Of a stretch of 21,008 nucleotides of DNA, positions 3,495 to 5,596 are shown in pieces. The notes beneath the pieces were generated by a model, which was not told the DNA's origin, ran no database searches, and worked only from the letters and a program-made list of their open reading frames with translations. Source of the stretch: a virus (taxonomy: Duplodnaviria; Heunggongvirae; Uroviricota; Caudoviricetes). The DNA lies in the IMG/VR virus record IMGVR_UViG_2671180458_000004; one strand, 5' to 3'. A program made the translations under genes and the position numbers. Every line of letters starts with the position of its first letter. Position 1 is the first letter of the stretch.

Positions 3495-3669
3495 ACCGGC
3501 AGCATAAGCCGGGAATTTTCAGGGCGGGTTTTGCGGGATTTCAGGAAGTATTTTCAGGGAAAAATGCAAAGGCGCTTCACGCAGATTTTAAAGCCCGTTA
3601 AATACAGGTTAGAAAATCACGACACGCGCCTGAAGGGGGTAAGGTAATGCATTTGCATACCTTAAACAA
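3495..3669 (-). promoter_or_regulatory. Candidate late promoter region upstream of I, with three direct TTTCAGG repeats
   Basis: 175-bp ORF-free gap; TTTCAGG on the plus strand at 3517-3523, 3539-3545 and 3552-3558; short inverted repeat ATGCA-TT-TGCAT at 3647-3658; position corresponds to Mu late promoter P_I. Confidence 0.4.
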
Positions 3670-4143
3670 TTAAGGCGTTTCTGTGGCCTTTTTAAAGCGT
3701 TTTCTGATTTCGTCCATGATCTCCTGCTCTGCCACCTGATCAAAGCCCATATACGGGCGTGCACCAATGGCCGCCGGTCCCGGTGGCATACCGGGCAGGC
3801 CACCCCACTGATGAATGGCCGCATAAGGCTCATTTGATCCAATCAGCGCCCAGGTGTCGCCATAATCCGTGGTCAGGCGTCGGGCCAGATCGCCGTTCAG
3901 CGTCAGGATTTTGCCGGGCATGTATCCCTTACGGGTACGCCACTTGCGGTAAGGATCTGACCAGTCATGCCAGCGTTCGCCGTCCGGCTCTTTTTCCTGT
4001 TCAAACGCCATTTCTGAGGATGACAGAAGGCTGGACGCCACACTGCGGGCCAGGTCTTTTCCGCCACCCACAAACTGAAGCCGGGCAAAGACCCGCTGGA
4101 GACGCGTAACGTCAACAACGACAGCGGCATCAATGGATGACAT
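3670..4143 (-). CDS. G: Mu G-like virion morphogenesis protein (gp31-like)
   Basis: 157 aa, the size of Mu G; GGAGG about 5 nt upstream of the ATG. Confidence 0.85.
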   Translation of the reverse strand: MSSIDAAVVVDVTRLQRVFARLQFVGGGKDLARSVASSLLSSSEMAFEQEKEPDGERWHDWSDPYRKWRTRKGYMPGKILTLNGDLARRLTTDYGDTWALIGSNEPYAAIHQWGGLPGMPPGPAAIGARPYMGFDQVAEQEIMDEIRKRFKKATETP

Positions 4144-4170
4144 ATTGCCTCCGCATAAAGGATGAATATA

Positions 4171-4265
4171 AAATAAACAGGCGGTCAGTGTACGCTTAAC
4201 TGGTAAAGTCGGTGCCTGCCTCCGGGTGGATCATGTATGCGGGTTCGACCCCCGCCACTGACCGT
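4171..4265. other. Structured element in the F-G gap: long closing stem plus an inner hairpin with a tRNA T-arm-like loop; terminator-like on the minus strand
   Basis: Plus strand: GTCAGTG (4184-4190) pairs perfectly with CACTGAC (4256-4262); inner hairpin GCGGG-TTCGACC-CCCGC (4239-4255). Minus strand: the structure is followed by CTGTTTATTTTATATT. Confidence 0.35.
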
Positions 4266-5596
4266 TAATCAATATCTCCTTCCAGTACCTCAAGCATTCC
4301 GCCCCGGATATCCGATTTCAGCTTATCCATATTGATAACCCGGTAAGCATTCACAATCACATCCAGTTTATCCGGCTGACGCTTCAGGCTGTACGGCGCA
4401 TTAACGGCAATCTGCACACTGCCATCCTTACTTTCCACGATATACATCAGATTGTTGTGGCGTTTATCCCACAGTACCGCTTTTGGCGCGGCCAGCATTG
4501 CCGGTAATCGCCCGAAATCCTCCGGCGTCAGGGCGATACCGTCATTCTGATGTTTCATGCTGTCCGCATGGAGCACATTTTTACCGCTCATCGCCAGCAG
4601 GCGGGCCGGTGGCGTTCCCGTCCGGCTTTCCACCGCCTGCGCAATGCTTTCGGTCATAAAGCCCAGCGTGCGGATATCGTTACCGCCTCGCCGGGTTTTC
4701 ATGATGTTTTTTGCCCAGATGCGAAATGCCAGCTGCCGCTCCGGGCTGTTGTTCATCTCCTGAACCACCATTTCCCGTAACGCCGGGCTTTTCACTTCGA
4801 TCAGCTTGCGGATCAGCGCCTGGTCTGTGCCGAACGCCGCCGAACCGGGGTTATATGACCAGCCCACATCCGGTGTCATGGTTCTGGTGCCATCTGAATA
4901 TGTGGTCACCGGCATTTCTCTGACTTCTCCGGTCTGCTTATCCACGCCAGCCTCAACATTGCGGGTGGAGAGATGATCCTGACCGGATGAAACAGACAGC
5001 CCCATCGCATCCAGACGGGCCTGAGACAATGGCCGGACACGGCAGCGACAGTTCCAGCCATTGGGCGGGTAGTGTGTATTCCAGAACGGATCGTCATAGC
5101 GGAATACCAGCCCGTTAAGGGCGGAATGTGCCGGGCGGGTGCGGCTGTCCATCACCGCCACATACTGCCAGAACGGATGCGTGTCCGTGTTGTTCATCAT
5201 CTGCGTGTAACGCCCGGCATTGTAAGCCACACGGGTGTTCACGTTGTAAATCAGCGCCAGACGGCGGGGACTGCCCAGCTGCACTTCTTCCGCGTTACCG
5301 GCACTGTCCACCACAATCTGTTTTCCCCACCATCCCAGCTTTTGCAGGCGGGGTGTCAGCGTGCGAATAAATGCTTTCTGTGAAATCCCCTCATCAACAG
5401 CACGCTGCACTTCCGCCTGTAGTGTGGTCAGTACGTCCAGGCGTGCCACTTTTGCCGCCGTGAATGAACGGGCATGAACATCCGCGTCTGTTTCGAACCA
5501 GTTCCAGCTGATATGCGCCCCTTTGGCGCGGAAGTATGCCACCGCCTCTTTTGAGGCAAGTGTGGCGGCATAACCTAAATCAATCCCCTGTGCCAT
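4265..5596 (-). CDS. F: Mu F-like head morphogenesis protein (gp30-like)
   Basis: 443 aa; start overlaps the portal 3' end by 17 nt; family assignment from recall of Mu F-like proteins. Confidence 0.88.
   Translation of the reverse strand: MAQGIDLGYAATLASKEAVAYFRAKGAHISWNWFETDADVHARSFTAAKVARLDVLTTLQAEVQRAVDEGISQKAFIRTLTPRLQKLGWWGKQIVVDSAGNAEEVQLGSPRRLALIYNVNTRVAYNAGRYTQMMNNTDTHPFWQYVAVMDSRTRPAHSALNGLVFRYDDPFWNTHYPPNGWNCRCRVRPLSQARLDAMGLSVSSGQDHLSTRNVEAGVDKQTGEVREMPVTTYSDGTRTMTPDVGWSYNPGSAAFGTDQALIRKLIEVKSPALREMVVQEMNNSPERQLAFRIWAKNIMKTRRGGNDIRTLGFMTESIAQAVESRTGTPPARLLAMSGKNVLHADSMKHQNDGIALTPEDFGRLPAMLAAPKAVLWDKRHNNLMYIVESKDGSVQIAVNAPYSLKRQPDKLDVIVNAYRVINMDKLKSDIRGGMLEVLEGDID

Follow-up and report, generated by a model that had tools for sequence, protein, structure and literature searches.

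Proteins with endoribonuclease activity can be neutralized directly by an RNA, as in the type III toxin-antitoxin systems (e.g. ToxIN), where the RNA serves as a pseudo-substrate or product mimic. The antitoxins of these systems consist of short tandem repeats which share an operon with the toxin gene, lie upstream of it, and are cut to size by the toxin. Colicin D is an anticodon tRNase with a BECR fold, and its immunity protein ImmD mimics a tRNA (PDB 1tfk). Mimicry of the top half and the elbow of a tRNA without decoding is also found in the tRNA-like domain of tmRNA and in YrlA, which has a permuted topology.

Polymorphic toxins of the MuF type are described in two papers (PMC5576092, PMC5512222). 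They possess a Phage_Mu_F N-terminus encoded next to the portal gene and a variable C-terminal effector; a partner lies directly downstream, and C-terminus and partner are exchanged like a cassette. The immunity partners described in the accessible parts of these papers are small proteins, and an RNA gene downstream of F is not reported there. According to PMC5512222, the MuF_C domain is a PBECR domain, by prediction an endoRNase with a fold of the colicin D/E5-like BECR type and an active-site His in the N-terminal helix. It is predicted there to be active in orthologues but not in phage Mu, and MuF proteins are described as head components that are packaged and delivered with the DNA. A 2026 preprint places the PBECRs in a colicin-like group, in which a semi-conserved Lys precedes the catalytic His.

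The locus described here shares several properties with these systems. The window, i.e. the whole stretch of 21,008 nt of viral DNA that was analysed, is a Mu-like prophage which is read on the reverse strand (Table 1) and is 98.8% identical to a Mu-like phage inserted in two Stx-converting phages. The gap of 121 bp at 4144-4264 is exactly the intergenic region of F and G; it is bordered by the ATG of G (complement of 4141-4143) and by the stop codon TAA of F (complement of 4265-4267). G has its own ribosome-binding site, GGAGG (complement of 4149-4153). The gap contained no open reading frame of more than 32 aa and none that was plausible. F is 59% identical to F of phage Mu and matched PF04233 with 102 bits and PF18819 with 29.2 bits (cut-off 27.6). 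As in the MuF modules, the Phage_Mu_F N-terminus is followed by a variable C-terminal domain, here a predicted effector, and an adjoining downstream putative partner varies together with it and is lost together with its motif. In contrast to the small immunity proteins of the MuF toxins, the putative partner is not an open reading frame but an RNA of conserved fold on the opposite strand.

Unlike ImmD, a protein that mimics tRNA, the proposed mimic is truly tRNA-shaped RNA, which would be transcribed convergently from its own promoter, and its predicted nuclease is part of a phage head protein instead of a secreted bacteriocin. The likeness to type III toxin-antitoxin systems lies in a putatively RNA-neutralized endoRNase and is a functional analogy only. 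Here, a single, non-repetitive cloverleaf gene lies downstream of and convergent to F, the fold family of the toxin differs, and the predicted toxin forms one domain of a protein that is structural in the virion. No repeat array of the type III kind was present at the locus; tandem copies were found only on a satellite-like island without a toxin gene (see below).

Table 1. Positions of the features discussed in the text (window coordinates unless another sequence is named)
Feature	Position	Strand	Details
Transposase A and B homologues	19.5-18.5 kb
Mor	11.5-11.9 kb
Portal	5580-7178
Gene F	4265-5596	-	443 aa, Mu gp30 homologue, Phage_Mu_F and C-terminal MuF_C
MuF_C (PBECR) domain of F	4310-4558	-	residues 347-429, PF18819
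Predicted active-site motif	4550-4573	-	LHADSMKH (H343...K348-H349)
Conserved NAYRV	4340-4354	-	near the C-terminus of F
Gene G	3670-4143	-	157 aa, Phage_tail_S / virion morphogenesis, PF05069 116.7 bits
Protease I and major head protein T			further down
Sigma-70-type promoter of the RNA gene	4145-4174	+	-35 TTGCCT 4145-4150, 18-nt spacer, -10 TAAAAT 4169-4174
tRNA-shaped non-coding RNA gene	4183-4263	+ (opposite to F and G)	81 nt
Acceptor stem	4183-4190 / 4256-4263	+	8 bp
TA (UA) linker	4191-4192	+
D-arm	4193-4211	+	C4193-G4211; loop AACTGGTA with GG; as written in the RNA fold: AACUGGUA
Central arm	4212-4234	+	3-bp base GTG/CAT, internal loop, hairpin CTGCC-TCCG-GGTGG
GTAT (GUAU)	4235-4238	+
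T-arm	4239-4255	+	GCGGG TTCGACC CCCGC, 5-bp stem
Mosaic cassette	4141-4500		RNA gene and last ~78-80 codons of F; sliding-window identity to L003
Satellite-like island	L108 12646-20640		= NZ_CP075652 2238645-2246640
Tandem tRNA-like copies at the island end	L108 20338-20420, 20443-20534, 20557-20639		three copies

Fold of the RNA in the F-G gap

The original prediction had described a stem GTCAGTG/CACTGAC on the plus strand, and this stem was read directly in the sequence at 4184-4190 and 4256-4262, enclosing 65 nt. Its extension to about 9-10 bp was also borne out in the window, where the pairs C4182:G4264 and G4181·T4265 are added; the stem of 8 bp, including G4183:C4263, is common to all relatives. 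The motif resembling a T-arm is present as described (GCGGG 4239-4243, TTCGACC 4244-4250, CCCGC 4251-4255). According to the same prediction neither a canonical D-arm nor an anticodon arm could be folded. This was correct for the anticodon arm, but a D-arm does fold between C4193 and G4211. The place of the anticodon arm is taken by a central arm whose 5-bp stem ends in a UCCG tetraloop.

A search with Rfam, which had been suggested as a check, matched the tRNA family RF00005 on the plus strand at 4184-4263 with 31 bits (gathering threshold 29; E 1.6e-4 for 601 nt searched), and together with the covariation in relatives this match supported the tRNA-like reading of this strand. The anticodon region comprised 24 nt compared with the 18 nt expected by the tRNA model. 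No other Rfam family, and no tmRNA, was found in the window, and ARAGORN detected no tRNA in the window or in the relatives. CCA is not encoded after the stem, where the window reads G TTA ATC. The single-sequence folding energy was unexceptional (z -0.6 for the gap, -1.7 for an 82-nt element).

With tRNAs (RF00005) the RNA shares the coaxial helix of acceptor stem and T-arm, the linker U8-A9, the GG of the D-loop, the T-loop TTCGAYY, and a four-way junction; ordinary phage tRNAs also share the sequence of the D-arm. The cloverleaf with acceptor, D- and T-arms and the elbow nucleotides (G18 G19, T54-Psi55-C56) are therefore those of a decoding tRNA, but the anticodon stem of 5 bp and the 7-nt loop with U33 and the anticodon 34-36 are absent. 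The RNA also differs in its acceptor stem of 8 bp, in which position -1 is always paired to position 73. Since the anticodon arm is missing, the element is a tRNA-shaped non-coding RNA gene and not a decoding tRNA; a genuine tRNA was rejected for the lack of an anticodon loop and the negative ARAGORN result in every locus.

Several other identities were considered and rejected. The G3·U70 pair of AlaRS substrates is absent, the third pair being C-G in 18 and U-A in 8 sequences. Only 11 of the 26 sequences have G:C as the pair -1:73; an identity of the HisRS type is therefore not conserved. The tRNA-like domain of tmRNA was likewise not recognized, as neither G3·U70 nor a model match was found; the tmRNA model gave a weak match below threshold only in the distant relative L183 (24.9 bits vs 47). 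In contrast to the permuted YrlA, the ends of the RNA form the acceptor stem. The T-arm resembles that of selC, while the D-arm and the variable arm do not. Apart from tRNA no known RNA family was matched in Rfam, and distant or alternative cloverleaf classes matched nothing. As to a trans-acting antisense sRNA, comparison of the element with the rest of the window yielded only 9-11-mers, in about the number expected by chance, and tetraloops are poor kissing partners. Induction of Mu requires SsrA, and nothing was found in support of a link of the RNA to this requirement.

The gap sequence was present in 173 of 5426 E. coli genomes. In E. coli FORC_069 and many complete E. coli genomes PGAP has annotated a "tRNA-OTHER" at the identical site. 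This annotation was given to elements with 100% or 96.7% identity to that of the window (e.g. NZ_CP027586 and NZ_CP064167, against NZ_CP023061), while the 99.2% identical copies of O157:H7 and other STEC are mostly unannotated by PGAP, the copy of strain M18 being annotated. A relative on the satellite-like island is annotated as tRNA-Tyr. The annotation of the RNA is unstable across E. coli genomes.

Strand, promoter and distribution among Mu-like phages

A promoter of the sigma-70 type precedes the RNA on the plus strand (Table 1); in a consensus scan its -10 box ended 8 nt before the stem, and its -35 box overlaps the ribosome-binding site and start codon of G on the other strand. Promoters with at least 9 of 12 matches occurred at the equivalent position in 18 of 31 lineages (e.g. 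TTGAAC-17-TATACT and TTGATT-18-TATAAT), compared with 0.72 expected from shuffled sequences (maximum 4). In the lineages L006 and L192 a terminator hairpin on the plus strand follows directly 3' of the RNA. In the alignment of relatives G·U pairs occupied 58 cells and A·C pairs 9 cells; the folded strand is therefore the plus strand, because its G·U pairs would turn into C·A mismatches if the other strand were folded.

The minus strand had been read as carrying an intrinsic terminator, and this reading was not upheld. The U-rich tract following the stem on this strand, CTGTTTATTTTATATT (complement of 4165-4180), corresponds to the AT-rich -10 region of the plus-strand promoter read on the other strand. 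A consensus scan of this strand found no terminator at the gap. In most related lineages (8 of 12), which have the -10 box TATACT, T made up only 2-4 of the 12 nt that follow the stem, and instead of a compact hairpin the closing stem encloses a multibranch structure of 65 nt, so that both the compact hairpin and the conserved U-tract of an intrinsic terminator were missing. The G·U bias of the plus strand also spoke against this function, as did the need for G to be transcribed across the gap, and the terminator was rejected.

A comparison of the F-G gap among Mu-like phages, also proposed with the original prediction, was decisive, and the cloverleaf RNA was found to be kept in this slot and orientation. 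Pattern scans and searches of IMG/VR anchored on the F protein gave 26 distinct close relatives. Apart from the three satellite copies, all came from between F and G of Mu-like prophages, where the identities fell to as low as 54% for F and 40% for G. In the alignment of these 26 sequences 95.1% of the pair cells were standard pairs (41-50% in controls with slid partners), and 16 of 21 pairs showed changes on both sides. When distant relatives were included (35 sequences), 94.5% of the cells were paired and 21 of 22 pairs had double changes. The GG of the D-loop and TTCGA of the T-loop were conserved. The central arm varied from 14 to 40 nt; in every member it ended in a small loop, often UNCG or GNRA, and never in an anticodon loop.

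The 35-sequence alignment was fitted to a covariance model (R1). The element of the window scored 90.8 bits and was the sole match in the window; close family members reached at least 74 bits, whereas ordinary phage tRNAs did not exceed 54 bits. With an alignment of F proteins, 80 Mu-like loci were obtained. Of 65 diverged loci, 33 had a match to R1 directly after F and on the opposite strand, the identity of F reaching down to about 38%, and weak matches were found in L101/L102 (F 29%) and Haemophilus phage SuMu. An RNA directly after F on the opposite strand is also present in L101, SuMu and B3. The length of the F-G gap was bimodal, with about 84-160 nt in the presence of the RNA (longer in three loci) and -14 to +11 nt in its absence. 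In phage Mu, F and G overlap by 4 nt and the RNA is missing; the genes also abut or overlap without the RNA in D108-type phages, JBD93, BcepMu and RS138. A scan of genome contigs for the strict T-arm pattern retrieved Leminorella only; the species range therefore rests on the IMG/VR loci. The T-arm pattern also fetched three unrelated phage contigs, carrying a putative ochre-suppressor tRNA with the anticodon tta (L124 6327-6401), three tandem tRNA-His genes (L136 10461-10695), and a tRNA whose anticodon loop is aberrant (L127 1736-1813).

Other cloverleaf RNAs with a -10 box TATAAT or TATAGT occupied the same slot in the same orientation in some lineages, among them L189/L193/L206, B3 and L216, and none of these RNAs was matched by Rfam. 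Those of B3 and L216 have a T-like loop GGUGRNG. In B3 (NC_006548 18971-19093; L221 3031-3153) the RNA has a closing stem of 10 bp, a T-like hairpin GGUGGA-GGUGGCG-UCCACC and the -10 box TATAGT; a hypothetical "ORF34" of 32 aa annotated between F and G overlies it on the opposite strand and is probably a misannotation. A third kind of cloverleaf was observed on the minus strand of L189 (2829-2951), L193 (2829-2936) and L206 (2811-2920), with a conserved arm GCTGGAAATTAGACGGCGAGCCAG and a T-like loop that is not that of tRNA. The F proteins of these three loci still contain HxDSxKH.

As judged from these alignments, the comparison showed that the F-G gap of a large part of the Mu-like phages contains an independent, conserved cloverleaf RNA gene on the plus strand. 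That the element is a decaying tRNA pseudogene, a chance structure or a terminator of the late operon would be in line with the Rfam score only marginally above threshold, the negative ARAGORN result, the unremarkable z-scores and the U-rich tract after the stem on the minus strand. The comparative data already contradict these explanations, which we consider extremely unlikely: the fold was kept with compensatory changes while the flanking proteins diverged to about 40% identity, the promoter is conserved but the U-tract is not, no terminator was called, and the G·U bias points to the plus strand.

Coupling of the RNA to the C-terminal domain of F

The predicted active-site motif of the MuF_C domain was compared with the presence of the RNA in 60 non-redundant loci. 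Both the RNA and the motif HxxSxxH were found in 38 loci, the RNA without this exact motif in 3, and neither in 19; the motif without the RNA did not occur. Fisher's test, which ignores phylogeny, gave p 7.5e-13 for this association. The three RNA-bearing loci without exact HxxSxxH were B3 and L216, which both have the variant LLH..RD.K and the second RNA class, and SuMu, in whose F no motif was recognizable. In Mu the motif is replaced by ATTADA and a deletion of 7 residues. In an AlphaFold2 run with full-length F the C-terminal domain had a pLDDT of 82-91 and was predicted to form a helix followed by 4-5 strands.

A part of the correlation between RNA and motif could be due to linkage, because the RNA gene lies next to the sequence that encodes the domain. 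Opposite states of RNA and motif were found in loci with near-identical N-termini of F (L183/L185 93%, L188/L204 97%, L159/L175 92%); in all, L183/L185, L188/L200-217 and L159/L175-176, with N-termini 92-97% identical, differed in both characters. These pairs show that the changes are independent. In L185 the C-terminal domain is orthologous (82-87% nucleotide identity), only the motif window is degenerate, and the RNA gene is precisely gone, which argues against simple block replacement or linkage. Comparison of the loci thus showed a genetic coupling of the RNA to MuF_C domains bearing the predicted motif HxxSx(K/R)H. The correlation would fit an inhibitor as well as a substrate or cofactor.

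Compared with the sister E. coli prophage L003, the nucleotide identity of the window was 92-100% through G and most of F, and only 62-77% over the cassette (Table 1). The same pattern was repeated in L155/L156. The C-terminal 80 aa fell to 64-78% identity between F proteins with N-termini 93-99% identical. Among F proteins with N-termini of at least 93% identity, those with C-termini of 90-96% identity had RNAs of 95-96% identity, and those with C-termini of 64-78% had RNAs of 68-82%, except for two pairs with 89-90%. These sequence identities showed that the RNA gene and the C-terminal half of MuF_C at the end of F are swapped jointly as a cassette; by analogy, joint exchange is the pattern of cassettes of toxin domains and their immunity.

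In E. coli STEC17-183 an integrase island of 8.4 kb is inserted in mdtP. It contains int, ash, an icd-like gene, DUF4222, a RepA helicase, SSB, PerC and a Mor homologue (47% identical to Mor of the window), and no structural genes. At its end it carries three tandem copies related to the RNA (Table 1), each of which is nearest to a different RNA type of the phages; the central arms are 90%, 70% and 81% identical to these types, and only 58% alike to one another. In two of the three copies G-CCA follows the 8-bp stem. F is absent from the island, and nothing is antisense to the copies. Full-length copies of the region were present in 14 of 5426 E. coli genomes. The island looks like a phage satellite, and its helpers are possibly Mu-like phages. 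By analogy, the array of three copies resembles an orphan-immunity array. Repeats of the iteron type, GTGAAA/GGTGAAA, were observed between mor and the tRNA-like array of the island at L002 2620-2700 and may represent its replication origin.

A role in cis was considered for the RNA, since it always occupies the same position, in the same orientation, with respect to F and G and the -35 box overlaps the ribosome-binding site and start codon of G. The convergent promoter and a stable transcript would then modulate the late mRNA at the F-G junction by antisense action or transcription interference, with RNase III processing or damped expression of G as the outcome and the tRNA fold as a stabilizer only. 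This is very unlikely, as it leaves unexplained why the elbow (GG in the D-loop, TTCGA in the T-loop) is conserved, why the RNA is linked to the His motif of F and why it varies together with the C-terminus of F; moreover, the RNA itself is clear of the ribosome-binding site of G and of the coding sequence of F, and the copies on the island have nothing antisense to them.

The neighbouring gap is also of interest. In the window the intergenic region between G and I comprises 175 bp (3495-3669) and corresponds in position to the strong gyrase site of Mu. In JBD93 (L220 3645-4285) this gap is occupied by AcrF3, an anti-CRISPR gene, followed by a small gene; the gaps between cistrons in the head module of the Mu type are therefore slots for conflict genes. 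It is unlikely that the RNA substitutes for the central strong gyrase site of Mu, because a functional gyrase site of its own has been reported for the Mu-like prophage of O157 Sakai (PMC10052514).

The RNA could also be a general tRNA decoy or moron that is unrelated to F, acting for example against defence nucleases or toxins of the host that target tRNA, and occupying its slot only by descent. Phage tRNAs are known to counter tRNA-cleaving defences (PARIS; PMC11464382), the adjoining G-I gap serves as an anti-defence slot, as with AcrF3 in JBD93, and the RNA gene has its own promoter of a constitutive type. A decoy of this kind would predict neither the repeated joint loss of the RNA and the active-site motif of F nor the cassette exchange with the C-terminus of F, and an RNA without an anticodon would be a poor bait for anticodon nucleases reading the loop. 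We regard this explanation as quite unlikely.

A possible role of the RNA and its significance

The reading that we favour, with a probability of about one half, is that the RNA is an uncleavable tRNA mimic which neutralizes the RNase domain of F. The RNA would be the cognate partner of this predicted domain and would act as a pseudo-substrate, docking like a tRNA but offering no cleavable anticodon loop. Inhibition is proposed because an inert tetraloop stands in place of the anticodon loop, which would make the RNA uncleavable. The producing cell would be protected in this way during late infection, and lysogens would be protected on superinfection. In a newly infected naive cell the injected RNase would stay active no longer than it takes the incoming genome to express the RNA, whose promoter is of the host type. 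The three copies on the island would then constitute orphan immunity against three types of RNase. The three RNA-bearing loci without the HxxSxxH motif speak against the mimic, and a tRNA mimic of low copy number might be unable to outcompete cellular tRNA unless its affinity were much higher.

A partnership of another kind would be that the RNA, instead of inhibiting the RNase domain, is its substrate or cofactor or is cargo packaged along with it; for example, the domain might process the RNA, or the RNA might help F to fold, to assemble or to be targeted in the head. Genetic coupling and co-variation of the cassette would fit any direct partnership of RNA and protein, and an RNA-binding role of MuF_C in Mu is suggested in PMC5512222. 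Against this, control by a late promoter would be expected for a cofactor of head assembly, and not a convergent sigma-70 promoter. The inert UNCG and GNRA tetraloops look like the removal of a cleavage site, the slot between F and G is where the immunity genes of MuF toxins sit, and a satellite-like island without F has three copies. A role other than inhibition is for these reasons unlikely.

Extended to the whole family, the preferred reading of an inhibitory mimic would describe an unrecognized class of RNA immunity, in which a tRNA mimic with a tetraloop specifically inhibits the colicin-like RNase domain of F, the two diversify together as cassettes, and orphan copies are collected by satellites or hosts. 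This wider proposal is made tentatively. A full-text literature search retrieved no description of the tRNA-shaped RNA between F and G, and in the accessible parts of the papers defining MuF_C/PBECR and MuF toxins (PMC5512222, PMC5576092, 2026 preprint) only protein immunity is discussed.

The role of the C-terminal domain of F (gp30) in the Mu family has so far consisted of computational predictions of an RNase or of RNA binding. An RNA partner that varies together with this domain turns these predictions into a testable toxin-antitoxin hypothesis, and suggests that structured RNA genes be sought downstream of other toxin domains. The RNA would also account for the stray "tRNA-OTHER" in about 3% of complete E. 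coli genomes (including O157 and other STEC) and for tiny "hypothetical ORFs" such as ORF34 of B3. Even if the mechanism were wrong, a family of cloverleaf RNAs equipped with promoters in a classic group of model phages would be a new non-coding RNA. If the mechanism is true, the RNA would be the first RNA immunity partner of an effector of the polymorphic-toxin type, and a function would be assigned to the long-enigmatic C-terminal domain of F in the Mu family. Immunity to nucleases of this type would then not necessarily be a protein, and RNA-based tRNA mimicry would be a means by which a phage controls its own injected weapon.
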